In this document: positions 6,641-64,000 of the stretch, piece after piece
How positions within the stretch are numbered: position 1 is the first letter of the stretch
Layout of the letters: each line of letters starts with the position of its first letter
NCBI GenBank assembly: GCA_007375645.1
Contig: VMER01000001.1
Span: 134,256-198,255, forward strand
Direction of reading: 5' to 3'
Length of the DNA: 64,000 bases
From: Parcubacteria group bacterium LiPW_15
Lineage (GTDB): Bacteria; Patescibacteriota; Minisyncoccia; UBA6257; 2-01-FULL-56-20
Translations under genes and position numbers: made by a program
Notes under the pieces: generated by a model
Databases searched by the model: none
Told to the model about the DNA's origin: nothing
What the model saw: only the letters and a program-made list of their open reading frames with translations

Positions 6641-6678
6641 CCAGCAGAATGGACAATCCTCTGCTGGTTTTGGCACGT

Positions 6679-6876
6679 CTACTTGATGGGCGCCGGTTCG
6701 TACGGGTGTCGGCGTGGCTTGGACGACGTCTTTGCCCGCCGCGTGGCTCTTTCTCGGGCAGCAACGATCTTCTTTGCGAGGCGCTGAAGTTCTTTCCTAT
6801 TCCAGTTGAGCGCCCGGATATCCTTCTTCGAAAGCTTTACGAGATACATTCCGTTGCCGAGCGATATCTTTTGCAC
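6679..6876 (-). CDS. Hypothetical small basic protein (GC-rich cassette 1)
   Basis: 65-aa ORF with a GTG start and a GAAGGAGG Shine-Dalgarno. A TTGGAC-17-TATACA promoter lies upstream, and the composition is GC-richer than the flanks. Confidence 0.45.
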   Translation of the reverse strand: MQKISLGNGMYLVKLSKKDIRALNWNRKELQRLAKKIVAARERATRRAKTSSKPRRHPYEPAPIK

Positions 6877-6911
6877 TTTCCCCTCCTTCGGCTACAAGTG
6901 ACCATATTCAG

Positions 6912-6940
6912 TGTATAACGGCTAAAGCTTTATTGTCCAA
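6912..6940 (-). promoter_or_regulatory. Sigma70-like promoter for cassette 1
   Basis: Minus-strand TTGGAC, a 17-bp spacer, then TATACA. Confidence 0.35.
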
Positions 6941-6960
6941 ATACTTAGTAGCTCCTATAA

Positions 6961-8310
6961 TTGAATCTCGTGGCCAAGCAACATATTCATTTTGTCGGCA
7001 TCGGCGGTATTGGGATGAGCGCGCTAGCCCGTTATTACTTGGCTCAAAATTGGGCTGTTTTCGGGTCCGACGTGGAAAAAAGCATAATTACCTCGGATCT
7101 TATAAAAGACGGCATATCGGTCAAAATCGGGCAGAAAAAGGAGAACATATCCCCTATCTTTGACCGTATCATCAAGAGTCAGGCGGTACAGGAGACCAAC
7201 CCGGAGATCTTAGAGGCAAGGAGGCTTGGACTTAAAGTTTTTTCTTATCCGGAGGCTGTCGGCGAGCTGACTAAAGATATTAAAACGATTGCCATTGCCG
7301 GCGCGCACGGCAAAAGCACGACTACGGCGATGATCGCCAAAATTTTGGTTGATGCCAAATTGGACCCAATGGTCATTTTGGGAGCGAAGTTTGATTTTTT
7401 TGACGGAAGAAACTTTCGCCTTGGAAAGAATTATTTGGTTTTGGAAGCGGACGAGTTCGGCCGGGCATTTTTGAATTATTACCCCACGCACACGGTTATT
7501 TTGAATATCGACAGAGAGCATTTGGATATTTATAGCGGCCTTAAGGACATTAAAGACACCTTTCTGCGTTTCATCTCTCAAACCAAACCGGGCGGTATTC
7601 TTATTTTGAACCGGGACGACAAAAATATTTTCTCGCTTAAAAATAAAATAGAAAAAATAGCCCTAAAAAATAAACTCAAAATTATCTGGTTCTCTTACTC
7701 CGACAAAATTCAGGCGGAAATATTCGGCGCGCTCCCTATTCCCGGGCGGCAGAACCGAACGGATGCGATCGCCGCTTATAATCTGGCATTGAGCCTTAAG
7801 GTGTCCAAAAAGAAGATATTAGAGTCCCTCTCCGGATATCCCGGCCTCTGGCGGCGAATGGAGCATAAAGGACCGGCTTTCGACGGTCGAGCGACGGTTT
7901 TCGACGATTATGCCCATCATCCTTCGGAAATTAAAGCCACCCTTTCCGCGTTCCGTGAAAAATACCCCGACTCCCCTATCCTTTGTGTTTTTAAACCGCA
8001 CCAGGCGAGCCGCCTTAAAATTTTGTTTAGGGATTTCTTAAATTCATTTTCCGCGGCCGATAAAATAATTATTCTCCCAACTTATATTGTTTTGGGCCGG
8101 GACATAGACGAGAAGGTTTTAACTGCGAAAAAATTGGCTGAAGACTTAGCCAAAAAATATCCGACGAAAAAGATCGTGTATCTTTCCGACTCCGATAAGC
8201 TTAAATCAACCCTGTATTCTCTTTTGTCTGCCGCGAATCCAAAGCCATCAGTTATCATTATGATGGGCGCTGGTTCGATAGCGAATCTTACAAAAAGCAT
8301 TTTGAACTGA
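6961..8310 (+). CDS. murC: UDP-N-acetylmuramate--L-alanine ligase MurC
   Basis: N-terminal IHFVGIGGIGMS motif and Mur ligase central and C-terminal domains. The start is TTG at 6961 or GTG at 6970, and no clear Shine-Dalgarno precedes it. Confidence 0.9.
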   Translation: MNLVAKQHIHFVGIGGIGMSALARYYLAQNWAVFGSDVEKSIITSDLIKDGISVKIGQKKENISPIFDRIIKSQAVQETNPEILEARRLGLKVFSYPEAVGELTKDIKTIAIAGAHGKSTTTAMIAKILVDAKLDPMVILGAKFDFFDGRNFRLGKNYLVLEADEFGRAFLNYYPTHTVILNIDREHLDIYSGLKDIKDTFLRFISQTKPGGILILNRDDKNIFSLKNKIEKIALKNKLKIIWFSYSDKIQAEIFGALPIPGRQNRTDAIAAYNLALSLKVSKKKILESLSGYPGLWRRMEHKGPAFDGRATVFDDYAHHPSEIKATLSAFREKYPDSPILCVFKPHQASRLKILFRDFLNSFSAADKIIILPTYIVLGRDIDEKVLTAKKLAEDLAKKYPTKKIVYLSDSDKLKSTLYSLLSAANPKPSVIIMMGAGSIANLTKSILN

Positions 8311-8328
8311 TTATATTAATCACCTCCA

Positions 8329-9087
8329 ATGTTCGATAACTATAAAAACGAAGAAGATTACAAAGAGCAGAACGGTTATACCATTGATGGTATTTGGTAC
8401 CCGCGGGTCACGCGTATCGTCGGTATAAAATCCAAACCGGCCCTCTATCGGTTCTACGGCGAAGCTCAGAGCTTCAAGGCGGCGCAGGAAAGCACGGAGA
8501 ATTCGGCAAAAGAAGGCACGTTAGTACATGAGGCGGTGGAAGCCTTGATGCTAGGGCATTCTCCCGTGATCGACCCGCTGGTGGCGCCGGCCGTGCAAGC
8601 CTATTTAAATTTTGTGGAAAGCAGAAACATAGAGACTGCTCCGGAATGGGTAGAGCGGAGAATTAAACATGCCGACCATCGCTATGCCGGCACGATCGAT
8701 GCGCTTGCGCTCATGGACGGAAAATTCGGTGTTTTGGACATCAAAACTTCGCAGGGAATTTATCGCGACTATAATCTCCAAACTTCCGCTTATGTGGAGG
8801 CGCTTCTCGAGGATTTTCCGAATATTCAAACCCGTTGGATATTGCGCATCGATCAGCAGCAGGTCTGCAATGTTTGCGGAGCGACGATGAGGACTAAGGG
8901 CGGACGGGAAAAAATAAAACGCGGACGTTCTAAGCCCTGCGAAACGCACATTTGGAGCGAAACGAAAGGCATTGTGGAGTTGCAGGAGTTTCCATATTGG
9001 AAGAGCGACTTTCAAGGTTTTTTGGGCGCGAAACGGTTGTGGGAGTGGGAAAATGAAGAGTGGTTAAAAAGAGTCGGATATCTATAA
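8329..9087 (+). CDS. PD-(D/E)XK nuclease superfamily protein with inserted C4-type zinc ribbon
   Basis: D..D-IK motif (GTIDALALMDGKFGVLDIKTSQ) plus a CxxC-x18-CxxH segment. This resembles RecB/Cas4-type nucleases. Confidence 0.6.
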   Translation: MFDNYKNEEDYKEQNGYTIDGIWYPRVTRIVGIKSKPALYRFYGEAQSFKAAQESTENSAKEGTLVHEAVEALMLGHSPVIDPLVAPAVQAYLNFVESRNIETAPEWVERRIKHADHRYAGTIDALALMDGKFGVLDIKTSQGIYRDYNLQTSAYVEALLEDFPNIQTRWILRIDQQQVCNVCGATMRTKGGREKIKRGRSKPCETHIWSETKGIVELQEFPYWKSDFQGFLGAKRLWEWENEEWLKRVGYL

Positions 9088-9095
9088 AATGAAAA

Positions 9096-9113
9096 CCTCG
9101 CCGGATGGCGAGG
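9096..9113. terminator. Bidirectional hairpin terminator
   Basis: Hairpin CCTCGCC-GGAT-GGCGAGG with an A-run before it and a T-rich run after it. It lies between convergent genes. Confidence 0.55.
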
Positions 9114-9140
9114 CTGTTTGCTCTCTGAAGAACTGGTTGG

Positions 9141-9383
9141 TCAACAACCGACCTGGGGGTAGGACTCTTCCCCTTTGGGCGGATCGACAGCGGCCACCTT
9201 GCTTCGGATGATCCCCCCGACGATTCCGAAGATGTGCGGGTTCTCGAGAAACATCTCGCCGGCCGCTTCGACCTCGGTGCCTCGTTGCGGGCCAGACAAG
9301 GTGGTGCCGTTCACGTAGACGCTCATTGTGAAGCGGGAAGTGCCGTTCTGACCTTCGGATTCCGTGATTCGAACGCTGGCCAT
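9141..9383 (-). CDS. Hypothetical protein (GC-rich cassette 2)
   Basis: 80-aa ORF with an AAGGAG Shine-Dalgarno. A TTGACT-17-TATGTT promoter lies upstream, and GC is higher than the flanks. Confidence 0.45.
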   Translation of the reverse strand: MASVRITESEGQNGTSRFTMSVYVNGTTLSGPQRGTEVEAAGEMFLENPHIFGIVGGIIRSKVAAVDPPKGEESYPQVGC

Positions 9384-9416
9384 CGATATCTCCTTTCCGA
9401 TTTGGGGCTGTCGAAA

Positions 9417-9445
9417 AACATACAGTGACTCCCCTCCCGAGTCAA
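9417..9445 (-). promoter_or_regulatory. Sigma70-like promoter for cassette 2
   Basis: Minus-strand TTGACT, a 17-bp spacer, then TATGTT. Confidence 0.4.
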
Positions 9446-9455
9446 GAAGGATCGC

Positions 9456-9638
9456 CTATTGCAGTCCTGCGGTCGTAGAGCACTTCTCGATTATTATCGG
9501 AGCCCGTGAATCTTTTTTTCCGTAAAGCTCTCCGATATAGAAGCTCAAGGCGAGGGCCAGAACAGCCAGAATGGCCCAAAAGACCATATGTTTATTGGCT
9601 AAAGTCTTCTCACTCCCCTCTCCCATGAACATTGACAT
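9456..9638 (-). CDS. Small hypothetical membrane protein
   Basis: 60-aa ORF with one predicted TM helix. Support is weak. Confidence 0.25.
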   Translation of the reverse strand: MSMFMGEGSEKTLANKHMVFWAILAVLALALSFYIGELYGKKDSRAPIIIEKCSTTAGLQ

Positions 9639-9699
9639 GATATTAACTATAGCATAGAATAGATACTCGTTAGCGCTGTAAACAATTATTTAAACAAAT

Positions 9700-9972
9700 A
9701 TGGCACATACAAAAGCGCTCGGCTCTACAAAGTTAGGCCGCGATTCACGGGCCAAGAGACTGGGCGTAAAAATTCAGGATGGGCAGAAAGTGATGACCGG
9801 TCAGATAATTTTGCGTCAGCGCGGAACCCATTACCTTCCGGGAAAGAATGTTAAACTCGCCAAAGACGATACCATTTTCGCAATGAAAAACGGTATTGTT
9901 AAATTCGGCGTCACCATGAAGACCAAATTCGACGGAAATCGCAGGAAGGCAACCATAGTCGCAGTGGTCTAA
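9700..9972 (+). CDS. rpmA: 50S ribosomal protein L27
   Basis: [16 protein letters not shown]... matches the L27 signature. Confidence 0.9.
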
Positions 9973-10038
9973 CCAAAAGATTTTTTCAAAAACCCTCCGA
10001 GTTCCGGAGGGTTTTCGGTTTATTTTGCACCGAGCCGT

Positions 10039-10473
10039 TCATTCCGCCTCTATTTTAATTTTTAGCTTAGCCATTATTCCCTTGGGCAAGTGAGCTTCCG
10101 CTTCATGGACCCCAAGTTCTTTTAAAGGTTTTGATATTTTTATTTCAACCCTGTCTTTGGTTATCAGTCCGGTATCACGCAAGCCCTTCAGGATATCTTC
10201 TTTATTCACAGATCCGAATACCACGCCTTTTTTGTCTACCTTCAGATTAAACTGGAGTTCCCGTTCGGATAGGAGTTTTGCCAGCCTCTCTAGTCTTTCT
10301 TCGGTTGCCTTGTCGTTTTTTTGAATCGCGGAAAGTTCTCCAAGGCTTTGTTCATTCGCAATCCGTGCCAATTTTTGAGGAAGCAAAAAGTTTCGCGCAT
10401 ATCCGTCGGAAACACTCTTTACATCATTTCTTTTTCCAATGCCGCGAACATCACTTAGAAGAATTACTTTCAT
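10039..10473 (-). CDS. rplI: 50S ribosomal protein L9
   Basis: [10 protein letters not shown].....V..GYARNFL is the L9 N-terminal domain signature. Confidence 0.85.
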
Positions 10474-11684
10474 TATTTTTTAATTATGTTTTCCAGAACC
10501 TGGATGGCTTTATCGAGCTGAGGATCACGATTATTTTTTATGTCGTCGTCAGAAAGCTGTATCTCATAATCCGGTTTTAGTCCGCTGCCTTCGAGTATGT
10601 GTCCGGAAGGCAGAACCCAGTGGGCGATGGTAAGTTTAAGCTGGCTGCCGTCAGGAAGCTCCTTGAGCTGTTGGACAGTGCCCTTTCCGTAGCTGGTTTC
10701 GCCGACGAGCGGTATCTTAGCTTGGTCTCGGAGTGCTCCTGCCAAAATTTCGGAAGCCGAAGCGGAACCTTTATTTATCAATATTACGGTCGGAAATCCA
10801 TAAAGATCCGCGCTGCCGCTTGCTTTTAAGGTTTCGATCGGGCCGGTCTTGTCGTTTTCGCTCACCACTATCGTTCCGGATTTGAGGAACCAGCCGGCCA
10901 GATCTACGGCTACGTCCAGGAATCCTCCCGGATCGTCCCGAAGATCCAAAATTATACCTTCGGCATTATTCGAGGCCGCCTGTTTCAGCGCCCCGTAAAA
11001 ATCTTTGCTCGCATTGCCGTTGAAGTTGTGCAAAGAGATATGCGCAAATTTATTTTTCATTTCAAAATCCACGGTCGGCACTTCAATTCTGCCTCGTTTG
11101 ATACTTATATCTTTTGCCGCCGTCCAACCTTCGCGGAAAACATTCAAGACAACTTCGGTGTTCTCCGGTCCGCGGATATAATTTACCGCCTCATCAATTT
11201 GTATGCCGTCGGTAGAGGTAGAGTTGATCTTGAATATCCAATCCCCTGCCCTTAGCCCTGCCGCCGCTGCAGGCGAACCCTTGAGGGGTGCGATAACGGT
11301 GAGTTGTCCTTTTCTTATCCCAAGTTCGGCTCCGATTCCGCTAAAATTCCCCTGAACGTCTTCCATAAATTTCTTTCCCTCCTGCGGATTAAAATATTCC
11401 GAATAAGGATCGCCCAAGGACCCTACCAAACCTCTTATTGCGCCGTAGACCCGCGCCTGGCCGTCTATTTTGTCAGCCCTGAGATAGATGTCGTCTATAG
11501 TTTTCCAGGCCGACCAGAACGTGCGAAAATCAGCCGGAGCCTGCCCATCCACATTCGTCACCCCTTTTGCCACCACCACCTCCGGAGTTCTTTTTCCGAC
11601 TTCGTTTCCCCAGTAAAAACCGCTGCCCATGAGTGCTGCCGCGGAGAGAATCACTAATGTAAAAGAAATCAGCTTTTTTTGCAT
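10473..11684 (-). CDS. ctpA: Carboxyl-terminal processing protease, S41 family
   Basis: N-terminal TM helix, a PDZ domain and an S41 catalytic domain ([13 protein letters not shown]). Confidence 0.85.
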
Positions 11685-11724
11685 TGCTTAATTTTACCCT
11701 ATTGGCCTTGAATGGAGCAACAAA

Positions 11725-11753
11725 TTGAAAAAATGCTTTAAATTTCTTATGAT
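11725..11753 (+). promoter_or_regulatory. Sigma70-like promoter TTGAAA-17-TATGAT
   Basis: Read from the sequence. The GTG at 11760 follows 6 nt after the -10 box, so the transcript may be leaderless. Confidence 0.4.
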
Positions 11754-11759
11754 ACAGAC

Positions 11760-12062
11760 GTGCCGATAGACTCCTCCTATCTCGACGAAATAAAGAAAAG
11801 GAAGAAAGATTCCAAGGTCTATAAGGAGTTTCAATTGACCGGATTGGAGATAGCCGAGATATTGGACGATGAAAAGCATAAGTCTTTATATATCAAGCTC
11901 GCAAAGACCAATTCCCGGCAAAAACTAATGTCAGTCGCGAAGGACGTGGCGGACAGGAAAAACGTTAAAAATATGGGCGCTTATTTTATGAAGCTATGGA
12001 AGGAATCCAAGATCGCGAAATCCAGAAAAAAGATAATTCTTGCTAAAAACGCAAAATATTAA
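11760..12062 (+). CDS. Hypothetical lysine-rich protein
   Basis: 100-aa ORF upstream of def. The start codon is uncertain. Confidence 0.4.
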   Translation: MPIDSSYLDEIKKRKKDSKVYKEFQLTGLEIAEILDDEKHKSLYIKLAKTNSRQKLMSVAKDVADRKNVKNMGAYFMKLWKESKIAKSRKKIILAKNAKY

Positions 12063-12575
12063 ATGGATCACATTTGGAAACTAGCCGATAAAAAAGAAGA
12101 GAAGCTGCTTCGAGAGAAAGCGGTTCCTTTTGATTTTAACTCCATGAGCCGAAAGGAGATCCAGGAGATGGTGACCAAGATGCGCAAAATGATGAAGGAG
12201 GCGAACGGTGTTGGGCTTGCTGCGAATCAAGTAGGTCTTCCCTTTCACATGTTTGTGGCCGAAGTTCCTGATGAAAAATCCGGCGGGAAAAAGTTCTACG
12301 CTCTTTTTAACTCCAAGGTAGAACGAAACGGCAAGGAAACCAACAAAGTGGAAGAAGGATGTTTGAGCGTTCCTTTGACCTACGGTGAAGTGGAGCGGCC
12401 GAGCCGCGTGACCTTAACCGGACAGGACAAAACCGGAAAGCTCGTGAAAATCAAAGCCTGGGGTCTTTTAGCTCGGGTTTTTCAGCACGAGACAGACCAT
12501 TTAAACGGTATTGTTTTTATCGATCGCGCGAAAACACTTTACGACCTAGTTTTAGAGGAAGATGAAAAACATTAA
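12063..12575 (+). CDS. def: Peptide deformylase
   Basis: Motifs GVGLAANQVG, EGCLS and HETDHLNG. Confidence 0.9.
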   Translation: MDHIWKLADKKEEKLLREKAVPFDFNSMSRKEIQEMVTKMRKMMKEANGVGLAANQVGLPFHMFVAEVPDEKSGGKKFYALFNSKVERNGKETNKVEEGCLSVPLTYGEVERPSRVTLTGQDKTGKLVKIKAWGLLARVFQHETDHLNGIVFIDRAKTLYDLVLEEDEKH

Positions 12576-13434: not shown

Positions 13435-13449
13435 GGCAGAAAACGGGAT

Positions 13450-14109
13450 TTATTCGCCGATCTTATCCAAACCCCACTTGGTGAGAAGACCGCTCAAGAA
13501 ATCCCAGTTCAGATTTTTGAAGAAACCGTCGATATAAGTTTTTCGGTCTATCGCGTAATCGATAAAATACGCATGCTCGTAAACGTCCAGGGGCAGGATG
13601 AGGGCGCAGTTCCAGACGGAACCGATATTATGCGCGTCGCTTCCGTAGATGTGGAGTTTCATATCTCCGAAGTCATAACAGAGAACTGCCCAACCTCTCG
13701 AAGACATTCCGGTCGCGATCATTTCTTCCTTCCAAGCGTCAACGGAGCCGAAATCCCGTTCGATCATTTCAACCAGAGCGCCCTTGGGTGTGCCATCCCC
13801 TCCCAGGGCGGCAAAATAAAATTCGTGAAGCTTCATTCCGTTCACCGCGAAAGTTTCCTGGCGTCTTAGCTCTCCATATTCGCTGTATACGCCGTTCGCG
13901 GTCTTTTTATCCGCAGTCTCGAGCTTTTCTTGTATCTCGTTGGTCTTTTTTACGTAGCCTTCGTAAAGCTTGTAATGGTTTTGGAGCATCTTGAGCGACA
14001 ATCCTTCCAAATCTTTTTCTATTTCTAACTTTTTAGCTTCAAATGGTTTTCTCATGTTGTTTTTGATTGGTTTTATATATATTAGCATACCGGTTCCCGC
14101 TATTGACAT
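13450..14109 (-). CDS. Fe/Mn superoxide dismutase
   Basis: C-terminal DVYEHAYFIDY..R..YI..F...NW signature. Confidence 0.8.
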   Translation of the reverse strand: MSIAGTGMLIYIKPIKNNMRKPFEAKKLEIEKDLEGLSLKMLQNHYKLYEGYVKKTNEIQEKLETADKKTANGVYSEYGELRRQETFAVNGMKLHEFYFAALGGDGTPKGALVEMIERDFGSVDAWKEEMIATGMSSRGWAVLCYDFGDMKLHIYGSDAHNIGSVWNCALILPLDVYEHAYFIDYAIDRKTYIDGFFKNLNWDFLSGLLTKWGLDKIGE

Positions 14110-14130
14110 TGAGGCAATATATGATATAAT
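14103..14130 (+). promoter_or_regulatory. Consensus sigma70 promoter TTGACA-16-TATAAT for cassette 3
   Basis: Read from the sequence. An AGGGAGG Shine-Dalgarno follows at about 14155. Confidence 0.5.
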
Positions 14131-14168
14131 GTGGGCTGAACTCTAAATCAGAAAGAGGGAGGCACAAG

Positions 14169-14438
14169 ATGGCCAACCAGTTCAATCTTCCCGTTCCTAC
14201 CACGGCCGAGGACGTCGAGCAGGCCGCAACGTTCCTCGTCGAGAAGGCCAGGGAGCTCTTCGCTCCCGTCGCCGGCGACTTCGAGGGCGCGGATTGCGCC
14301 ATCGTGATGCCGACCGACTCGCTGGAGGTCGCGGAGCAGAAGGTTCTCGTGGCTGCCCACGTGGACACCACGAAGTTCCTCTACGACGCGGAATTCGAGG
14401 ACGCGGAGTTCGTCGAACCTTTCGTCATGACCGACTGA
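14169..14438 (+). CDS. Hypothetical acidic protein (GC-rich cassette 3)
   Basis: 89-aa ORF with markedly GC-rich codons, bracketed by its own promoter, Shine-Dalgarno and terminator. Confidence 0.5.
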   Translation: MANQFNLPVPTTAEDVEQAATFLVEKARELFAPVAGDFEGADCAIVMPTDSLEVAEQKVLVAAHVDTTKFLYDAEFEDAEFVEPFVMTD

Positions 14439-14462
14439 CCACCTTTCCCCTCTCCAAGTTCG

Positions 14463-14509
14463 GCCCCGACTTCGCTTGCCTCACGGCAGGCAGGGTCGGG
14501 GCCTTTTTC
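14463..14509 (+). terminator. Rho-independent terminator
   Basis: 9-bp GC stem GGCCCCGAC...GTCGGGGCC followed by TTTTT. Confidence 0.65.
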
Positions 14510-14522
14510 ATATTTAAACAAT

Positions 14523-14549
14523 AAAAAAGCGGAGAGTTTCCCCTCCGCC
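14523..14549 (-). terminator. Rho-independent terminator for cassette 4
   Basis: Hairpin GCGGAG-n8-CTCCGC with a T-run on the minus strand. Confidence 0.5.
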
Positions 14550-14571
14550 GGTAAGCAATACTCTTCTTCGG

Positions 14572-15171
14572 CTAAACGATCACGAACTTTACGACGCCTG
14601 GTCGAACGGTAACAGGTCTGATCCGGTCGGCAGCGGTCGCCAGGACAACCTCCTTGGGCGACATCTGCGGTCCGCCCAGCTTCCGAATTCTTCGGTTCAC
14701 TACTTCGATCACAGATCTCGGCATTCCCGAGAGCATCATGATGTGATTGCTTTCCGTCAACGAGAACTTTCCCTCCGTGAGCGTGTAGGCCACGCGAGCT
14801 GCGAGAGTGTAGTACTCGATCGCGGCTTCGAGGAGGGCGATCTCCGGACGGACGCATTTGTTTCCCAGTTCGATCTCGAACCTAGAGAAACCGAGCCGTA
14901 TCATGCGGCGCTCGTTTTCCTCCCATGAGAACTCTTCGATCGCGGCCATGAAAAATCCGAGTGTAAGGTCGGCGCACAGCTTGACCTTACTCCTCAGCGC
15001 TGCCACTTCCCGCGGGAAGAAAAAGCCTGCTTTCGCGATCTCTTCGAGGCTGTGGGTTCTGCAGAACCTAAAGTCGATTTCATGACCGACGATGATCTCC
15101 GCCGAGATGGTCGAGCGTTTGGTCACTTCTCGCATACAAACGCAGCACCGAACCAGTTTATAACCTGCCAT
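14572..15171 (-). CDS. Hypothetical protein (GC-rich cassette 4), contains an Rx4H motif
   Basis: 199-aa ORF, GC-rich, with a strong AAGAGGAGG Shine-Dalgarno. The RFCRTH segment is HEPN-like; this is speculative. Confidence 0.45.
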   Translation of the reverse strand: MAGYKLVRCCVCMREVTKRSTISAEIIVGHEIDFRFCRTHSLEEIAKAGFFFPREVAALRSKVKLCADLTLGFFMAAIEEFSWEENERRMIRLGFSRFEIELGNKCVRPEIALLEAAIEYYTLAARVAYTLTEGKFSLTESNHIMMLSGMPRSVIEVVNRRIRKLGGPQMSPKEVVLATAADRIRPVTVRPGVVKFVIV

Positions 15172-15248
15172 TGTTTCCTCCTCTTTCCGGATCGGAGTTC
15201 TGGGGCTTGGAACATCTTGCCACTTTCTAAAACAAGGGTCAAACCAAT

Positions 15249-39509: not shown

Positions 39510-39520
39510 GCATTGAAAAA

Positions 39521-39539
39521 CCCCCGCTCGCGCAGGGGT
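39521..39539. terminator. Bidirectional GC hairpin terminator
   Basis: CCCCCGCTCGCGCAGGGG between convergent genes, with an A-run and a T-rich run on its flanks. Confidence 0.45.
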
Positions 39540-39564
39540 CGCTTGTTGCTGACGTGTGGCTGGG

Positions 39565-40251
39565 TCAGAATTCACGAATATCTACCCAAGAAACCCCGAA
39601 AAGCATTCCCGGATACTGAAGGTGTTTCGCCATAAGAACTTCCACCTTTTCCTCGAGCTCTTCCCTGGCGCCCGGAGAAGCGAAATCGACGGATGTCATG
39701 AACTCTCTAATCTCGTCTCCGTTCCGAATCATGAATCCGTAAAAGAGCCGCCTTACCATCGGACTCCCGAATTTGTGATTGGGGTCGTAGGCTCCTGCAC
39801 GGAACACCCGTTCGAAAACCTCTGGATCCCGGATGTATGTGAATGTGATCCAGATGGTAGCCTCCCGAATTTTCCCGTCCTTCTCCGCCAGAAAGAAAAA
39901 AGGCTCGTTAGGTCGCCGCGTTTCGGACGGTACGCGAAGAATGCAAGAATCGTCCCGGGTCGCGAAAGTTACCCAATGATATTTCCCGCCCACCTTCCTA
40001 TACAGCAGGTCGTTAGGTGGCCTGCTCTGATACTCCAACAGGAACGGGGAGATGAAGGTGACGAAAAAGAACGGAGTGAAAGCCAACGCGGAGAAGAATC
40101 GAAAGCTCCTGCCGTGCCGCTGATTCTCGCAGTACCCGACAGGATTGAGCCGCGGATCCTGGCGACGGAGATAATGGAATATGCGGTGATAAAGCATGAA
40201 GCTGACGACAGAAACGATCATCGCAGTCAGACAAGCCGTGAAGTAGGACAT
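39565..40251 (-). CDS. Hypothetical membrane-anchored protein (GC-rich cassette 5)
   Basis: 229 aa from MSYFTACL with an AGAGGGAGG Shine-Dalgarno. Two N-terminal TM helices. GC is higher than the flanks. Confidence 0.5.
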   Translation of the reverse strand: MSYFTACLTAMIVSVVSFMLYHRIFHYLRRQDPRLNPVGYCENQRHGRSFRFFSALAFTPFFFVTFISPFLLEYQSRPPNDLLYRKVGGKYHWVTFATRDDSCILRVPSETRRPNEPFFFLAEKDGKIREATIWITFTYIRDPEVFERVFRAGAYDPNHKFGSPMVRRLFYGFMIRNGDEIREFMTSVDFASPGAREELEEKVEVLMAKHLQYPGMLFGVSWVDIREF

Positions 40252-40306
40252 CTGGGCCTCCCTCTTTCTCCGAAACACTCGGGTAGGTTTTCTTTGAGCT
40301 TTGTAG

Positions 40307-40335
40307 GTTATATATCTTTTTGTGATATTCGTCAA
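40307..40335 (-). promoter_or_regulatory. Sigma70-like promoter TTGACG-17-TATAAC for cassette 5
   Basis: Read from the minus strand. Confidence 0.45.
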
Positions 40336-57478: not shown

Positions 57479-57518
57479 GCTCCTCCGTTGGTCCTTTTTA
57501 TAGGACCAGCAATAGAGT

Positions 57519-57547
57519 TGACATACGGACGTATTTTCGGCATAATT
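57519..57547 (+). promoter_or_regulatory. Consensus sigma70 promoter TTGACA-17-CATAAT for cassette 6
   Basis: Read from the sequence. An about 80-nt leader follows, then an AGGAGG Shine-Dalgarno. Confidence 0.55.
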
Positions 57548-57631
57548 TCGGCAGAATTCACGTCTTGAAAATCGATTACCCATTCTTCTTCGTGCGAAGA
57601 GAAGCTCAGTGAAGGAAGTCAGGAGGTCAAC

Positions 57632-58012
57632 ATGGCAACCGAGAAACGCTTCGTAGTCCTCGTGGAAGCCTGCAACGGAAGCAGCGGCCTCACGTGGTCA
57701 ACCGTCGTCCTCGACACGAGCGACGGCGCCCGGGCGATTCGCACCGCCAGAGAGGTCGAGAAGCTCGGCTACAAGATCGACTGGGAAAACGAAGATCAGG
57801 TGAAAGTTCTGCGTCTGGAACCCGAGAAGATCTACCCTGAGCGAGTTTTCGAGTGCGCGGACGACTCATTCGATCGGAGCCCCGTCGTCTACAAAAGGTG
57901 CAGGGACGCTTCCGCGGGTGTTCTGGTCGAGTACTTCTTCGACCCCAAACTTGCCTATGAGTTTGGGATGAGCATGGCCACGAGATTCCCGTCAGAGCCA
58001 ATCGAGGGATGA
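57632..58012 (+). CDS. Hypothetical cytoplasmic protein (GC-rich cassette 6, gene 1)
   Basis: 126 aa with GC-rich codons and an AGGAGG Shine-Dalgarno. Confidence 0.5.
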   Translation: MATEKRFVVLVEACNGSSGLTWSTVVLDTSDGARAIRTAREVEKLGYKIDWENEDQVKVLRLEPEKIYPERVFECADDSFDRSPVVYKRCRDASAGVLVEYFFDPKLAYEFGMSMATRFPSEPIEG

Positions 58013-58033
58013 ACTCGAAAAAGGAGAAGAGAA

Positions 58034-58561
58034 GTGAAGAAGTCTTCCCTCATTCCGATTCTGAGCGTCATCGCGCTCACCATCCTTCTTCTGCCCCCTC
58101 CGAAAGGACCGAGCGCCGACCCGAGGAATGCTCCCGTGACCACGAGCCCTGACAAACTCGCCGTTGCCATCGGCGGCGGTCAACGAGACCCGATGAATCT
58201 CTTCCCGCCGGACAATCACAAGGCGAAGACGGCGGTCATCGCGCCGCAGTTCGAGGAGAACACCTCTGCTCGCCCGGCTGATTTCTTCCTCATCGATTCG
58301 GACGGGAGCACAAGCACCGTTCACCTTCCGGACGGTTGGGAGATCATGAGCGTCCAGCGGCATGGTCTTCCATTGAATCTTCACGTTGGCTTCGGCGACG
58401 ACGCTTACCACCTCGCTGTCGAGCTAAACGAAGCCAGCGAGCGTCTCGCACATACCTACACGGTAACGTGTAGGGTCAGTGCCACATTCAAAACGGCTGC
58501 GAGATTCGAGGTGAGAACCTTGACCATCCCGGGCGAGAAAATCACGTTCGACTCGCCGTAG
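58034..58561 (+). CDS. Hypothetical secreted protein (GC-rich cassette 6, gene 2)
   Basis: 175 aa with an N-terminal signal peptide and an AAGGAG Shine-Dalgarno. Confidence 0.5.
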   Translation: MKKSSLIPILSVIALTILLLPPPKGPSADPRNAPVTTSPDKLAVAIGGGQRDPMNLFPPDNHKAKTAVIAPQFEENTSARPADFFLIDSDGSTSTVHLPDGWEIMSVQRHGLPLNLHVGFGDDAYHLAVELNEASERLAHTYTVTCRVSATFKTAARFEVRTLTIPGEKITFDSP

Positions 58562-58565
58562 CCCT

Positions 58566-58596
58566 TCGCCCCGCCCGCGCATCCGCGTCGGACGGG
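58566..58596 (+). terminator. Rho-independent terminator
   Basis: GC-rich hairpin GCCCCGCCCGCGC...GGACGGGGC followed by TTTTTT. Confidence 0.65.
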
Positions 58597-58602
58597 GCTT
58601 TT

Positions 58603-59352
58603 TTATATTCCTAAATTCTTTAAAAAAGTATCAAGTTCTTTGCCTTCCAGTTTCCTAAATTTTCCCGCGGGAAGGTATCCGAGTTTTATATTCATAATCC
58701 GCATCCGTTTAAGCGAGACCACTTCATAACCCAAAGCGGTACACATTCTTCTTATCTGATGCTTTTTGCCTTCGGTCAAGATCAGACGGAAAGTCCTCTC
58801 CCCTTCTTTAATAAGAATCGCGGGCTTGGTTTTGTAGCCTTCAATAAATAATCCTTTCTGTATGCGACGCACAAAATCTCCGTTCAAAGATTTATTTACC
58901 TTAACCAGATATTCTTTTTCATGGCCGTATTCTGGATTCAAAAGCCGGTCGGTTATCCGGCCGTCGTTGGTCAAAATTATGAGGCCCTCGGAGTTCTTGT
59001 CCAAACGGCCAAGCGGAAATAACTTTTCCTGTGGTGAACCGGGTCGAACCACCTTGAACTTCGACTGGATCTCGTCGGCAATAGAACGTTCCCCCTTCTG
59101 CGGAGTGTGAGTCACAATTTCTTTTGGCTTATTGTAAGCGATATAAATGAGTTCCTTGGCCGGTCTCGCTACGGCAGTTACGTCGTCTCCCGCATGCACC
59201 TGATCGCCAAGGCGGGCACGCCTCCCGTTTATTTTTACCTTGCCGGCACGAATCAGCTCGTCGGCCTCCCGGCGCGCGGCGATTCCCTTAAGAGCCAGAA
59301 ATCTGTTTATGCGAACAGGATAATCAATTCTATCCGACTCGGAATTAGCCAT
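58603..59352 (-). CDS. RsuA/RluB-family rRNA pseudouridine synthase
   Basis: N-terminal S4 domain and the catalytic GRLDKNSEGLIILTNDG motif. Confidence 0.85.
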   Translation of the reverse strand: MANSESDRIDYPVRINRFLALKGIAARREADELIRAGKVKINGRRARLGDQVHAGDDVTAVARPAKELIYIAYNKPKEIVTHTPQKGERSIADEIQSKFKVVRPGSPQEKLFPLGRLDKNSEGLIILTNDGRITDRLLNPEYGHEKEYLVKVNKSLNGDFVRRIQKGLFIEGYKTKPAILIKEGERTFRLILTEGKKHQIRRMCTALGYEVVSLKRMRIMNIKLGYLPAGKFRKLEGKELDTFLKNLGI

Positions 59353-60085
59353 TATAATCGGACACAGTCACGCTCTCCATTTTGACCGGGCTTAACGGCC
59401 TGTCGCCCGCGCCAGTCGTGGCAGAGCCGATAGCATCCACAACTTCCTGTCCTTTTACAACTTTACCGAAAATCGTGTAATCGTGCTGAAGCGGATTATC
59501 CGCGAGCATGATGAAGAATTGGCTGCCGTTGGTGTTCGGTCCGGCATTAGCCATCGCCACAACACCTTTTTTGTAGCCCGCCTGATAAGACAAAGTAGCC
59601 GGGTTCAATTCGTCATCAAATTTGTAGCCAGGTCCGCCAGTGCCGGTGCCGGTCGGGTCCCCTCCCTGGATCATAAAACCCGAAATGACGCGGTGGAAGA
59701 TAACCCCGTTATAAAAACTTTGATTCGCAAGCTTAATAAAATTCTCAACGGTCTTCGGTGCGTCTTCGTCGTAAGTGGCGATTTGAATTTCGCCGACATT
59801 GGTCTTAATAGTTACTAAATGTTTCATTATTGGTTGATTATTGGTTTGATCTTGGGTTTGTTCCGTGTTTTCGGTTTGAGGAGGATTCCATCCCCCGACA
59901 AAGATGGAGCTGACGACCATGGAGATAAACACCAGAACGACTATCGCAGTGCCGATATGCTTTGTTTTCATAAAAGATATAATAACAGCATAAACCAGAT
60001 TTGAGAATAAGGCATATGGAACGCGAGCTATATCCTGTAAGATTCTCATAACCCCTCCGTCAATATATATGAAGGGATACTCCAA
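59345..60085 (-). CDS. Cyclophilin-type peptidyl-prolyl cis-trans isomerase with N-terminal TM anchor
   Basis: FHRVISGFMIQGGDP signature. Confidence 0.85.
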   Translation of the reverse strand: MEYPFIYIDGGVMRILQDIARVPYALFSNLVYAVIISFMKTKHIGTAIVVLVFISMVVSSIFVGGWNPPQTENTEQTQDQTNNQPIMKHLVTIKTNVGEIQIATYDEDAPKTVENFIKLANQSFYNGVIFHRVISGFMIQGGDPTGTGTGGPGYKFDDELNPATLSYQAGYKKGVVAMANAGPNTNGSQFFIMLADNPLQHDYTIFGKVVKGQEVVDAIGSATTGAGDRPLSPVKMESVTVSDYNG

Positions 60086-60599
60086 TATGGACGCGAATAA
60101 CGCCCAAAAAAACTTTTTGAAAGGCTACGACGACTATTCGGCGGATCTTTTACGCCATGCCGTTATTAAGACCAGCAATGAGGAATTGGCGAAGGACCTG
60201 GTTTCGGAAACGTTCCTGAAGACCTGGGAATTCGTCCAAAAAGAGAAGGTTAAAAATATGAGGGCTCTGCTTTATAAAATATTAAATAATCTCATAATCG
60301 ATCACTACCGCGCCAAAAAACCGTTTATCTCGCTCGAAGACATGCCGGAATCGGAGGAACCGGCGGACAGAACCGATCTTCAGGCGGGACTCGAAGTGAA
60401 GCTGGCCGCAGAAACCGCGAGGGGGTATCTCGCGCTCCTTCCGGCAGATTACCGGGAAATATTCAACTACAGGTTCATAGACGGGCTTTCGACCGGCGAG
60501 ATAAAGAAGCTTACCGGTAAGACTTTGACCAACATTTACGTCATCATCCACAGAGGGACAAAAATCCTCAAAGAAAAGCTGCAACACCATGAAATCTAA
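60069..60599 (+). CDS. ECF-type RNA polymerase sigma factor
   Basis: Sigma-70 region 2 and region 4. Confidence 0.75.
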   Translation: MKGYSNMDANNAQKNFLKGYDDYSADLLRHAVIKTSNEELAKDLVSETFLKTWEFVQKEKVKNMRALLYKILNNLIIDHYRAKKPFISLEDMPESEEPADRTDLQAGLEVKLAAETARGYLALLPADYREIFNYRFIDGLSTGEIKKLTGKTLTNIYVIIHRGTKILKEKLQHHEI

Positions 60600-61548
60600 G
60601 GAGGTTAAAAAAATATTTTCCGAATTCAAAAATATCCCCGTGGATCGGGAGTTTTTGCACGAGCTTAGAGGAAAACTGGAGATTCAAACCGCGTTTGATG
60701 TCCGGGAGGCCGGCAAACTGCCTGGTTTTAGTTTTAAACGCATCGCCTCCGCCGTTACCCTCGCCTCGTTGCTTTTGGGCAGCACCGGCACGGTTTTTGC
60801 CTCCCAAGCCAGTCTCCCCGGAGAAACTCTGTATCCGGTTAAAAAACTGGTGGAAAATGTCCGCCTTGCCGCCGCTATAGACCAAAAAACCAAAGCGGAT
60901 ATCCGACTCGGCATCGCCGAAGAGAGACTTACGGAGATCAATGCCCTTCTTGCCGAAAAGCAAGTCCAAAATTCTTCTTCCTCATCCGCCCTCGAAAATA
61001 ATATCGAAGAAGCCGCAAAAGATTTTGACTCCCAACTCAAAGAGATTTCCCGAAATGCCGAAGAGCTTGAGCGCGCCGGAAAGATCGAGAAAGCTTTGCG
61101 AATAAATACCGATCTTTATTTTTTCGGAAAAAATTATAAAAAGCTGATCGAAAAGAACAAAGAAGATTCTTCGAAGCCGATCAAAGTTCGCTTGGAAGGT
61201 TCTTCCCGGGAAAACGACAGAGCCACCGAAAATGCGAAGGAACGCATGGAGCATCTCAAAAAAGATAACGACAAAAAAAGCGACTCCGAAGACGGCGAAG
61301 GCACTTCTTCAACTTCCGTTCAAATCTCAGGCCAAGCTACCATATCCAACAGTTATAATATAAGGGACGAAAAGAAGGCGCCGGATCCATTTATCTGGGT
61401 CCCGCCCAAAAATGACTCCCAAGGAAAGGTCGATTCGAATCCGGAAAACCGAATTTCCGAAAACGAAGAGGAAAATCCGGAAAACCGGAGAGAGCCAGAA
61501 AAACAACCAAGAGAAACTAATTCGTTCCAAATTAAAATAAACCTATGA
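60589..61548 (+). CDS. Putative anti-sigma factor / membrane-anchored coiled-coil protein
   Basis: Overlaps the ECF sigma gene stop. One TM helix followed by a coiled-coil. Confidence 0.4.
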   Translation: MKSKEVKKIFSEFKNIPVDREFLHELRGKLEIQTAFDVREAGKLPGFSFKRIASAVTLASLLLGSTGTVFASQASLPGETLYPVKKLVENVRLAAAIDQKTKADIRLGIAEERLTEINALLAEKQVQNSSSSSALENNIEEAAKDFDSQLKEISRNAEELERAGKIEKALRINTDLYFFGKNYKKLIEKNKEDSSKPIKVRLEGSSRENDRATENAKERMEHLKKDNDKKSDSEDGEGTSSTSVQISGQATISNSYNIRDEKKAPDPFIWVPPKNDSQGKVDSNPENRISENEEENPENRREPEKQPRETNSFQIKINL

Positions 61549-62417
61549 CAAAAAAACTCAAATACGCATCCGTGATCTTTGCCATTCTTACCATTTCCCT
61601 CGGCGCGATGAACGCCAAAGCGGACAACGATGACAACGGAAAAGACGACAATGGGAAAAAGAATTTCCCGGCCGGCATAACCAAACAGATACAGGCCTTT
61701 GACATCAACAAACTGCTTTCGAACGTTAAAATCTCCGATGATGATCTGAAAAGCAAACCTGCTTCTTTGACCATCAATCCGAACGGAGAATTCAAGCTCA
61801 ATGGCGGTGTTGTTGTGACCATTCCGGCTGCAGGCAACCCTTCGTTTACCGTAAAATCCTGGGGAATCACTTTTGCGGTGAATTATTCCACCCTAACCAA
61901 TCTTCGGACGCAAAACGGAGCGATGCTTATCACCGAATTGCATGTTGGCGACATTGTGAATATCCAGGGCAAGATCGACGCTAATGGAGTTGTTCTCGCC
62001 ACGCGCGTGGAAAATCTCTCGATTGCTTCCAGCGAGCAAAATGTCCAGCTGCGCAATCAGATAAATGCGCTCATCGAAAGGCTTAACCTCCTTCTCGGCA
62101 AAGCCGGTTTGCCGCCGATCGCAACTCCGACCGCCACCCAAGCGATGGTTGTCCCGACCCTGGCTTCTGTCTCCCCCGCCTCTACCACGTTCGGTAGCGC
62201 CGGCTTTACCCTGACTCTCACCGGTACAAACTTCACCAGCGCTTCTATTGCCAAATGGGCGGGCACCGCGCTTACGACAACGTTTGTATCCCAGACCCAA
62301 TTGAATGCCGCAGTTCCGGCCGCAAATGTTGCGACGACCACGAATGTGCTCATCACCGTGTTTAATCCGGGTACTTACGGAGGAACCTCGAACGCCCTAC
62401 CGTTCTCCGTTCAATAA
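61545..62417 (+). CDS. Secreted protein with C-terminal IPT/TIG-like domain
   Basis: Signal peptide, a coiled segment and a C-terminal beta-sandwich-like domain (PASTTFGSAGFTLTLTGTNF). Confidence 0.45.
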   Translation: MTKKLKYASVIFAILTISLGAMNAKADNDDNGKDDNGKKNFPAGITKQIQAFDINKLLSNVKISDDDLKSKPASLTINPNGEFKLNGGVVVTIPAAGNPSFTVKSWGITFAVNYSTLTNLRTQNGAMLITELHVGDIVNIQGKIDANGVVLATRVENLSIASSEQNVQLRNQINALIERLNLLLGKAGLPPIATPTATQAMVVPTLASVSPASTTFGSAGFTLTLTGTNFTSASIAKWAGTALTTTFVSQTQLNAAVPAANVATTTNVLITVFNPGTYGGTSNALPFSVQ

Positions 62418-62515
62418 AAATCTCTTGTTTTTCCCCACCCTAAACGCATTAGCGTCGGGTGGGTTTTTTGTTTGCAGGGTTTTCATTTGCGCAAAAAACT
62501 CTTATGCTTGTATCT

Positions 62516-63637
62516 ATGAAACGACTATTCGTGGATTTTTGCGGCGTTGTTTACCGGGCATTGCGTCCCGTTCTTTTTCTCACGAACTCCGAGACAATCC
62601 ATGAATTTTTGGTGAACTTTGGCGGGGTTTTGGGCGCCATCCCGCCGGTCAGATGTATCTTCTATTCTTTATGGGTAAAAGAGAGCCAGACGCTTGCTCA
62701 AAACATCCTGGGGATTGAGTTTAGGAACCCAATCGGACTTGCCACGGGCTTCGATTATAAGGCCAAATTAACCCGAATTTTGCCATTTATTGGCTTCGGA
62801 TTCGGAACTGTGGGGACTATCACCAATAACCCTTATGAGGGCAATCCCCGTCCGATGCTCGGCCGTTTAGTTAAATCCCGCGCACTCCTCGTAAACAAAG
62901 GTTTTAAAAATGACGGTATTGACGCAGTAGTCAAAAAATTCAAAAACACGGAAACTTTTTATCCCGTCGGACTTTCCATCGGTAAAACCAATTCCAAAGA
63001 AACCGCGACCCAGGAAGCAGCCATCGCCGACATTATCGCCGCTTTTAAAAAAGCGGAGGCCGCAGATCTTCCTTTTGCCTACTACGAACTGAATATCAGC
63101 TGTCCGAATCTTTTTGGAAACGTAAGTTTTTATCCACCGGGAAATCTAGAGGCGCTTCTTTTGGCAGTTGCGGACCTTAATCTTAAAAAACCACTGTTCA
63201 TAAAAATGCCGATCACCGAATCCGACGAAGATGTGATGAAAATGTTTGAGGTCATTCACTCCTTCAGGGTGGATGGCGTAATATTCGGGAATCTCCAAAA
63301 AGACCGATCACACCCGGATCTGCTGCCGGAAGAAGTGGCGCTTCACGGCAAAGGAAACTTCAGCGGCAAGCCGACCGAAAAACGTTCCAACGAGTTGATA
63401 AAATTGGCTTATAAAACTTTCGGTAAAAAATTGATTATCATCGGTTGTGGAGGGGTTTTCTCCGCCGAAGATGCTTATACAAAAATCAAAAATGGAGCCT
63501 CTCTGGTCCAGCTCATAACAGGTTTGATATTCATGGGTCCTCAGCTTGCCGCGCAGATAAACCTGCAACTCCCAAGACTTCTTAAAAAAGACGGATTTAA
63601 AAATATAAGCGAAGCGATAGGCGCGGGAGTGAAATAA
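62516..63637 (+). CDS. pyrD: Dihydroorotate dehydrogenase (quinone-type, class 2)
   Basis: FMN-binding motifs and ELNISCPN. Start chosen at MKRLF; the ORF opens at 62459. Confidence 0.85.
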   Translation: MKRLFVDFCGVVYRALRPVLFLTNSETIHEFLVNFGGVLGAIPPVRCIFYSLWVKESQTLAQNILGIEFRNPIGLATGFDYKAKLTRILPFIGFGFGTVGTITNNPYEGNPRPMLGRLVKSRALLVNKGFKNDGIDAVVKKFKNTETFYPVGLSIGKTNSKETATQEAAIADIIAAFKKAEAADLPFAYYELNISCPNLFGNVSFYPPGNLEALLLAVADLNLKKPLFIKMPITESDEDVMKMFEVIHSFRVDGVIFGNLQKDRSHPDLLPEEVALHGKGNFSGKPTEKRSNELIKLAYKTFGKKLIIIGCGGVFSAEDAYTKIKNGASLVQLITGLIFMGPQLAAQINLQLPRLLKKDGFKNISEAIGAGVK

Positions 63638-63693
63638 AAAAGAACCCGCCCCGCCGCAGCCGAGGCTGCGCGCGAAAACGGGTTCGAGAGGGG

Positions 63694-63882
63694 TCAGGCG
63701 AGAAGCTTCGGAAAGGCGTTGCAGATGTGACTCCACAGAGCCCTGAATCGGATCTCCCGTTCATAGCAGGCCTGTGTTTCGGTCTGTTCCCGACAGAGAT
63801 CGCACTTCCCCGACTCGTGACGACCGTTGATGTAGTCGTGGCCAGAGAGTACGAACTTCTCGGGCTTGTCGTCTCGCTTCAT
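63694..63882 (-). CDS. Hypothetical small Cys-containing protein (GC-rich cassette 7)
   Basis: 62 aa with a TAGGAGG Shine-Dalgarno. A TTGACT-17-TAATAT promoter lies upstream. Confidence 0.45.
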   Translation of the reverse strand: MKRDDKPEKFVLSGHDYINGRHESGKCDLCREQTETQACYEREIRFRALWSHICNAFPKLLA

Positions 63883-63903
63883 ACCGTCCTCCTACCGCCA
63901 GAG

Positions 63904-63932
63904 ATATTACCACAATATTTTGGAAAAGTCAA
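63904..63932 (-). promoter_or_regulatory. Consensus sigma70 promoter TTGACT-17-TAATAT for cassette 7
   Basis: Read from the minus strand. A hairpin ACACCC-TTTC-GGGTGT lies just beyond it at 63950-63965. Confidence 0.5.
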
Positions 63933-64000
63933 TCAATGCTTCAAACAAAAAACACCCTTTCGGGTGTTTTTTGTTTAGGCTACTTGATTGTGTAAGCGGC

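Follow-up and report, generated by a model that had tools for sequence, protein, structure and literature searches.

What are seven compact, GC-rich units doing in the gaps between the housekeeping genes of a bacterial chromosome, and are they recent foreign arrivals or long-standing parts of the genome? The units lie within a 64,000-nt stretch of contig VMER01000001.1 (positions 134,256 to 198,255 of the forward strand; assembly GCA_007375645.1, Parcubacteria group bacterium LiPW_15), and this whole stretch is referred to here as the window. Our analysis favours the view that they are natural, long-resident and independently transcribed hypervariable accessory loci, each combining a conserved expression frame with a variable payload, a reading to which we assign a probability of roughly 0.6. 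The host is an uncultured Candidate Phyla Radiation (CPR)/Patescibacteria bacterium that is Saccharibacteria-like; the nearest other genomes are metagenome-assembled genomes labelled Candidatus Saccharibacteria or Saccharimonadales.

All seven units, or cassettes, had been located correctly in a preliminary description of this DNA, which counted nine proteins among them; the units hold eight open reading frames (ORFs) in total. The modular order of promoter, Shine-Dalgarno (SD) sequence, ORF and terminator that it reported was found in every unit, as follows:

c1, 6634..6939, minus strand: promoter TGGACA-18-TACACT (6939-6910), SD GAAGGAGGGG, a basic 65-aa ORF with a GTG start (6679-6876) and a hairpin at about 6641-6667 followed by a T-run.
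c2, 9088..9445, minus strand: promoter TTGACT-17-TATGTT (9445-9417), a leader, SD GGAAAGGAG, an 80-aa ORF (9141-9383) and a terminator (9094-9115).
c3, 14103..14508, plus strand: consensus promoter TTGACA-16-TATAAT with an upstream TG (14103-14130), SD AGAGGGAGG, an acidic 89-aa ORF (14169-14438) whose G+C content at third codon positions (GC3) is 0.86, and a terminator (14462-14503).
c4, 14522..15242, minus strand: promoter TTGACC-17-CAAGAT (15242-15214), SD AAGAGGAGG, a 199-aa ORF (14572-15171) and a terminator (14528-14549).
c5, 39513..40335, minus strand: promoter TTGACG-17-TATAAC (40335-40307), a leader with a small hairpin, SD AGAGGGAGG, a 228-aa ORF for a predicted membrane protein (39565-40251) and a terminator (39519-39540).
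c6, 57518..58605, plus strand, two genes: promoter TTGACA-17-CATAAT (57518-57546), an 85-nt leader with a hairpin, c6a (57632-58012, 126 aa), c6b (58034-58561, 175 aa, with a predicted signal peptide) and a terminator (58568-58598).
c7, 63636..63932, minus strand: promoter TTGACT-17-TAATAT with an upstream TG (63932-63904), SD TAGGAGG, a Cys-containing 62-aa ORF (63694-63882) and a terminator (63642-63685).

The coding sequences of the units differ from the surrounding genes in composition. By eye, the contrast had been put at about 60% G+C against the low to mid 40s; its direction was right and its size somewhat overstated, coding G+C being 52-63% in the eight cassette ORFs against a window mean of 46.9%. 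The foreign look of the units was borne out by measurement. Their GC3 values (0.63-0.86) all lie above the native maximum (mean 0.505, sd 0.057, range 0.37-0.61; z 2.2-6.1, Mann-Whitney p = 8e-11), where the native set, used for both composition and SD statistics, comprises 64 window ORFs, and the pooled cassette tetranucleotide vector falls 19 sd outside native subsamples. Cassette codons favour C or G ends (TTC 84%, ATC 77%, CAG 84%, GAG 62%, AAG 65% and CTC 46%). The ORFs display a GC1 > GC2 << GC3 periodicity and carry protein motifs conserved in small families, indicating that they are truly coding. Antisense shadow ORFs, thought earlier to be exclusive to the cassettes, occur elsewhere in the window too.

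Two other accounts of this composition were tried and rejected. Structured non-coding RNA was dismissed on the grounds that a search against Rfam at the gathering threshold gives two tRNAs only and the units show coding signals. The codon bias of highly expressed genes was dismissed because the ribosomal protein genes L27 and L9 are of ordinary GC3 (0.54 and 0.38, respectively). A GC peak is not by itself diagnostic of a cassette, since the 5′ part of a native zf_Tbcl_2 zinc-finger gene (38988-39509) reaches 62% GC over 39001-39300; this gene is 93% conserved in L011, one of the related loci introduced below.

The expression signals of the units set them apart as well. Predicted SD:anti-SD duplex energies range from -9.3 to -13.0 kcal/mol for 8/8 cassette ORFs, upholding the strong SD sequences of the preliminary description, against a native mean of -2.2 kcal/mol over the 64 ORFs (p = 3e-6); among the native ORFs, a strong SD is found in just four, all with ordinary GC3. 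Each of the seven units has a -35 box matching TTGACA at five or more of six positions (background probability 0.014 per site), followed at a spacing of 16-18 nt by a -10 box with 3-6 of 6 matches. Paired -35 and -10 boxes are therefore present throughout, as had been noted, but the label of near-consensus sigma70 promoters fits only c3 (12/12) and c6 (11/12). A GC-rich hairpin and T-run stand directly 3′ of the stop codon in 7/7 units, with fold z-scores of -1.8 to -5.3. Over the whole window, sites resembling promoters or terminators are no more numerous than shuffling predicts, so the non-random part is the co-occurrence of the signals at the units. The cassette promoters and leaders themselves are AT-rich and of native composition.

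Native genes were said to use weaker signals, and the contrast proves to be even greater than that, with native genes mostly devoid of an SD, lacking a -35 box and in many cases leaderless-looking. At about 20 native genes that open transcription units, some 6 nt (range 6-8) separate the end of the -10 box from the ATG or GTG, and the best -35 match scores 2.8/6, in line with the background of 2.4/6; an upstream TG (TGnTAnAAT) is found in about a quarter of the native genes scanned. Examples of this apparently leaderless type are the genes at 44555-45835, 46852-48060, 48133-48522, 56450-57478 and 27106-31233. Given this -10 spacing and the missing SD, the core genome appears to be largely expressed from leaderless mRNAs, without an SD or a -35 box.

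We compared the window with related loci from several public assemblies. L001 (CAZHBZ010000001.1) is collinear with window positions 1-17602 at ~80% DNA identity, and L007 (Ga0209518_1004934) covers 2012-11696. L010, from the Logan assembly of run SRR8863432, covers 50589-64000. L011 and L014, both contigs of GCA_964489165.1, have ~85% DNA identity to the window, L018 is a relative whose dihydroorotate dehydrogenase (DHODH) protein is 95% identical to that of the window, and L013 is a more distant relative (Obg protein 68% identical, obg GC3 0.35). L020 and L021 are strain-level contigs from JGI sample 3300014208, and the strain-level comparison covered c3, c4 and c6.

Positional homologues were found for six of the eight genes (c2, c3, c5, c6a, c6b and c7), with promoter, leader and terminator conserved. 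Cassettes with the same flanks as in the window are thus present in relatives for c2, c3, c5, c6 and c7, a pattern that the preliminary description had itself named as speaking against recent acquisition. The c2 slots of L001 and L007 each hold a 79-aa ORF whose promoter, leader, SD and terminator match those of the window; the proteins are 33-41% identical to c2, and the DNA aligns well outside the coding sequence and poorly inside it. L001 has a 66-aa homologue of c3 (46% identical) behind a near-identical TTGACA...TATAAT promoter. The c5 homologue of L011 (57% protein identity) stands between the same ABC-F and zinc-finger genes, and c6a and c6b are 50-51% identical in L014, between obg and the pseudouridine synthase gene; both are also in place in L018. 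The c7 slot, between the DHODH and SIMPL genes, holds a 70-aa homologue in L018 that is 40% identical over 35 aa. Downstream of obg in L013 there are two units with promoter, SD and terminator, one of them c6b-like, with GC3 values of 0.57-0.58. The split between cassette and native genes recurs at the related loci L001, L011 and L014, where a strong SD occurs only in cassette genes (-8.8 to -16.1 kcal/mol), with the exception of c6b in L014, the second gene of a two-gene unit, at -6.2.

The payloads diverge far more than their surroundings. Native orthologues share 81-98% protein identity, with non-synonymous divergence (dN) of 0.03-0.13 and omega, the ratio of dN to synonymous divergence (dS), of 0.02-0.12. 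Cassette proteins are 33-57% identical, with dN of 0.32-0.67 and omega of ~0.3-0.65, values that are approximate because dS between the compared genomes is near saturation.

Beyond divergence, the content of the slots turns over. The c1 slot of L001 and L007 is taken up by an unrelated zinc-ribbon ORF of 51 aa, and homology to the window resumes there within the 3′ arm of the terminator; the zinc-ribbon gene of L001 is SD-led, with a native-like GC3 of 0.52. At the c4 position, L001 has a gene of native composition that we take, by eye from its sequence and without confirmation by a family search, to be DNA-3-methyladenine-glycosylase-like. Extra units that are missing from the window were seen in L001, L007 and L018.

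Exchange is also evident between near-identical strains. L020 matches window positions 14444-16480 at 92-100% per 60-nt segment, mostly 97-100%, across the GH18 gene, the whole of c4 (a 99% identical variant in the same context) and both terminators. Over 14181-14443, nearly the entire c3 coding sequence (14169-14438), identity falls to 38-48%, and L020 encodes in this slot a 103-aa ORF with no BLASTP similarity to c3 and a GC3 of 0.85, compared with 0.86 for c3. For c6, L021 is 97-100% identical to window positions 57435-58440 except in three patches, namely the leader hairpin (75%), a frameshifted middle part of c6a (80-87%) and the signal peptide of c6b (55-70%), a pattern that reads as a recombination-type mosaic. 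A three-genome comparison agrees poorly between the unit and its flanks: for obg and rluB, the window is closest to L014, and L014 and L018 are the most distant pair, whereas for c6a and c6b, L014 and L018 are by far the closest pair. Furthermore, the c6a proteins of L014 and L018 include an additional domain of ~120 aa, which the window c6a lacks. Payload variation covers entire coding sequences, including changes in length.

Some of the products offer hints of function. c6b carries a predicted signal peptide in the window and a LIGC lipobox in L018 and L021, and c5 has predicted N-terminal transmembrane helices and a candidate SPFH/FliL-like domain or fold, the SPFH/Band-7 type being that of prohibitin, HflK/C and stomatin. 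On these features, the units probably encode envelope or interaction proteins; inspection revealed no export signal in c1, c2, c3, c4, c6a or c7. Compared with L021 and L018, the window c6b (58034-58120) has lost ~11 nt encoding the lipobox, and its product may be secreted without lipidation or be impaired. In L021, it is c6a that is frameshifted.

Homologues of the cassette proteins are few. Sequence searches of Pfam, PADLOC, PHROGs, NCBIfam and PDB returned no significant match, and none of the eight proteins matched a PADLOC defence model at E <= 0.01. A concatenate of the eight proteins gave no match by tblastn against phage and plasmid collections and no homologue in a word-seeded search of 5.8 billion proteins; an IMG/VR scan with c6a and exact-sequence look-ups of c4 and of one host protein likewise returned no match. 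HMMER searches against 1.84 billion representative proteins yielded small families for c3, c5, c6a and c6b only, while c4 recovered its 99% identical variant, c2 and c7 only themselves, and c1 no match, not even itself. Those family members whose contig was looked up all lie in a CPR-type context, and none was traced to a GC-rich organism.

Taken as hypervariable resident loci, the units can be described as follows. Each occupies a fixed intergenic slot, with promoter, leader, strong SD and intrinsic terminator forming the frame. For c2, c3, c5, c6 and c7, this frame descends vertically and is roughly as conserved as the housekeeping genes beside it. Between SD and terminator sits the payload, GC-rich and clade-restricted, gaining and losing domains and evolving about 5-10x faster at non-synonymous sites, with almost neutral divergence between species. 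Within a species, payloads are reshuffled by recombination, up to full replacement by an unrelated ORF, the presumed route being homologous recombination within conserved frame and flanking sequence. The products may be envelope or host-/phage-interaction proteins that selection keeps diverse, and the excess of GC could reflect a pool of GC-rich donors or else a bias of the locus itself, for instance GC-biased gene conversion.

Several points weigh against this reading. Expression of the units is predicted from sequence signals alone, and the omega values are approximate for the reason given above. Near-neutral drift on its own could account for much of the payload divergence between species; it cannot account for the strain-level swap at c3. 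The 5′ breakpoint of that swap is not visible because contig L020 ends at the SD, and the scans for attC sites, repeats and recombinases identified no mechanism or site for payload exchange. Apart from the strain variant of c4, c1 and c4 have no homologue in the sampled relatives and could be newer arrivals. As to the GC excess, a three-taxon polarisation of third positions in c6a and c6b gave 47 GC-to-AT against 19 AT-to-GC changes, at face value a sign of amelioration, but was judged uninformative, as parsimony alone predicts ~2.5:1 when the outgroup is near saturation and GC3 is ~0.72. With this test confounded by outgroup saturation, either a GC-rich donor pool or a locus-bound bias may lie behind the excess.

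Could the units instead be artefacts or newcomers? Their textbook layout of promoter, SD, ORF and terminator does look designed, and the preliminary description had raised engineered or chimeric DNA and an assembly artefact as alternatives. However, L010 is 100% identical to the window, without gaps, over 50589-64000 (13.4 kb, including c6a, c6b and c7), and equivalent, homologous units occur in five other public genomes or contigs, between matching housekeeping genes, in NCBI/GTDB, ENA, JGI and Logan assemblies from different samples. A protein encoded in the window also matches one of the NCBI LiPW_15 metagenome-assembled genome at 100% identity. A chimera of assembly or binning, or engineered DNA, is refuted for c2-c7, and for the units as a whole the idea is practically negligible. 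The explanation preferred in the preliminary description, that the units are recently acquired members of one modular selfish or defence-type cassette family inserted in intergenic gaps, is largely refuted by synteny and in our judgement very unlikely, with six of the eight genes having positional homologues and conserved frames in genomes ~80-88% identical at the DNA level, and c6b having a homologue in L013 despite an Obg only 68% identical. Such a family would fit the atypical GC3 and tetranucleotide composition, the self-contained signals, the absence of c1 and c4 from L001, the extra cassettes present only in relatives and the swapped c3 payload in a near-identical strain. Yet all-against-all BLASTP links only proteins of the same slot, no direct repeat involves any cassette and no repeats or ends are shared among the units, and a pattern scan for attC-like cores (RYYYAAC...GTTRRRY) found none overlapping any unit. 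Neither the Pfam scans of window proteins, in which several ORFs had no match, nor the gene calls of the loci revealed an integrase, transposase or recombinase, and none of the PADLOC, PHROGs, NCBIfam, phage, plasmid or (for c6a) IMG/VR searches gave a match. With no common repeats, cross-slot homology or attC sites, a mobile-element family was rejected. What remains of the proposed horizontal acquisition is exchange, as seen in the c3 swap, the c6 mosaic and the discordant c6 genes; its recency does not stand, given the six genes with positional homologues.

Older or home-made origins deserve more weight, without becoming probable. A single ancient transfer of whole units from GC-rich, SD-using donors (for example, the actinobacterial hosts of Saccharibacteria, or phages), followed by vertical descent under weak constraint and incomplete amelioration, would explain why the codon usage resembles that of a ~60-65% GC genome, with GC1 and GC2 raised too, and SD sequences and hairpin terminators are expected of such donors; by our own estimate, a dS of ~1 allows a residual GC3 of ~0.7 from a start of ~0.9-0.95. 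We nevertheless consider it unlikely: relatives of the payloads occur only in a few small families, without one traced to a GC-rich organism, the promoters and leaders are AT-rich like the host, the unrelated payload that replaces c3 in a near-identical strain is just as GC-rich (GC3 0.85), and mosaicism and tree discordance indicate continuing exchange. Nor has the GC3 offset of about +0.2 faded in L013, where amelioration should be complete (0.35 to 0.57, compared with 0.50 to 0.72 in the window). This near-constant offset from the host baseline speaks instead for native, lineage-specific genes whose GC was made in place, either through GC-biased gene conversion where recombination is concentrated in hot spots or through selection favouring GC-rich, stable, SD-translated mRNAs, as do the native and conserved regulatory frames, the demonstrably frequent recombination at these loci and the GC3 of ~0.85 in both unrelated c3-slot payloads. 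Against an in-place origin are the four native genes with a strong SD and normal GC3 and the SD-led zinc-ribbon gene at native GC3 in the c1 slot of L001. To our knowledge, the GC3 shifts ascribed to biased gene conversion in bacteria are much smaller than +0.2, and we regard this origin as decidedly unlikely.

Comparison with known systems helps to place the units. Phage morons are self-contained transcription units that have been inserted between the conserved genes of a phage (PMC3594210). Like morons, the units have, as judged from sequence signals in 7/7 cases, their own promoter and terminator, differ in GC from their neighbours, lie between conserved genes, vary in presence or content and encode small accessory proteins of unknown function. 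The moron feature of extra insertion is shared by c1, c4 and the additional cassettes of L001, L007 and L018, while the c2, c3, c5, c6 and c7 slots are common to relatives. Unlike morons, the units have chromosomal flanks (Mur ligase, L27/L9, SOD, GH18, ABC-F, Obg, RluB-like and DHODH genes) and no PHROGs or phage match, and their payload is exchanged inside a conserved frame, most of the slots being ancient. As they are not in a phage or prophage, the units lack the context that defines a moron.

Replacement flexible genomic islands or islets, described by Rodriguez-Valera and colleagues, hold divergent or unrelated content at the same locus in close strains. The units resemble them in their fixed locus, sharp boundary (from 97-100% to ~40% identity at c3), divergent or unrelated alleles and atypical composition, and in that some of the products appear to be envelope-associated (the c6b signal peptide and lipobox and the c5 transmembrane helices). 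They differ in consisting of one or two small genes rather than multi-gene glycosylation or surface clusters, in that the SD and terminator of the gene itself delimit the exchanged part, and in having a distinct expression grammar. Integron cassettes likewise place small, exchangeable and mostly orphan ORFs at a fixed site with a 3′ hairpin; here, in contrast, there are no attC cores, integrase or array, the units have their own promoters, they are spread over 57 kb and their families are slot-specific. Within the window, the signs of a diversity-generating retroelement are missing too: there is no cassette repeat, Pfam scans of the window proteins revealed no reverse transcriptase, and the variation spans whole coding sequences. 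Rare SD-led genes are known from otherwise SD-independent lineages such as Bacteroidetes or the leaderless-rich Actinobacteria and Deinococcus. The window is similar in having a strong-SD minority in an SD-poor genome, which implies a distinct translational regime, and dissimilar in that the SD-led set coincides with GC-rich, hypervariable, clade-restricted genes and with -35 promoters. We know of no described case that combines SD-led, GC-rich, hypervariable small genes with -35-dependent promoters, and literature searches for an earlier account of it in Saccharibacteria or Patescibacteria found none, which is weak evidence as coverage was incomplete.

Some further observations concern the frames. 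Small hairpins lie just 5′ of the SD in the leaders of c6 (57575-57600) and c5 (40268-40285). Pairing in the c6 hairpin is kept despite sequence changes in L014 and L018, as it is in the c5 hairpin despite a change from CCGAGTGTTTCGG to CCGAAGATTTCGG in L011. Directly 3′ of the c3 stop codon, at 14439-14455, is a pyrimidine tract, CCTTTCCCCTC, an approximate complement of the unit's own purine-rich SD region; it is kept in L001 and in L020, even with the unrelated coding sequence of the latter. Beside the c1 slot, TGTCGC(A/G)/GCGACA half-sites in inverted pairs are clustered at 6428-6622, with 6/15 window-wide matches falling within 195 bp of one ORF-free gap. The cluster is conserved in L001 (9985-10130) and L007 (5260-5400) and could provide an array of binding sites for a replication protein or a regulator. 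The c1 slot is adjoined by a Mur-ligase gene of native composition (6961-8310); the syntenic position in L001 and L007 is without this gene and measures only ~285 bp.

The remainder of the window is dominated, among its large ORFs, by housekeeping genes: FtsW, MurG, GltX, an M23 peptidase, the Mur ligase, L27, L9, CtpA, Def, Fmt and SOD, together with the GH18 enzyme, the ABC-F ATPase, GreA, a DEAD-box helicase, Obg, the RluB-like pseudouridine synthase, a PPIase, ECF sigma factors and DHODH. At 22977-31233 lies a group of large proteins of surface type with cohesin, dockerin and Big_13 domains, together with a 1375-aa ORF without a Pfam match. An ORF-poor region (20650-21400) holds a perfect 91-nt direct repeat (20708-20798 and 21088-21178), the copies 380 nt apart.

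The genomes of CPR bacteria and Saccharibacteria are tiny and mostly read as streamlined core metabolism plus 'hypotheticals'. In the window, sequence alone is enough to single out a distinct class of loci, marked by the combination of SD, -35 promoter and GC3 excess in an otherwise leaderless, SD-less genome. We suggest, tentatively and as a doubtful rather than a probable extension, that one genome here uses two expression grammars and that vertically inherited slots swap unrelated GC-rich payloads without integron-like machinery, the payload pool perhaps coming from, or being tuned to, high-GC SD-using hosts, for which the payloads could be host-interaction effectors. The practical consequences are several. 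A translation-initiation model applied uniformly across the genome will fit one of the gene classes badly. Gene callers are led astray by GC-rich payloads and report antisense shadow ORFs, as in L018, where the public gene call at 4972-5469 (minus strand) is the antisense shadow of the real c6b at 5014-5547 (plus strand), and assemblies break at these loci, as L020 does inside the c3 slot. If the GC excess were generated in place, the units would be a clean natural system in which to study GC-biased conversion or mRNA-level selection in bacteria. For the organisms themselves, the concentration of species and strain variation in these slots marks their payloads as candidate host- or phage-interaction genes of epibiotic bacteria.

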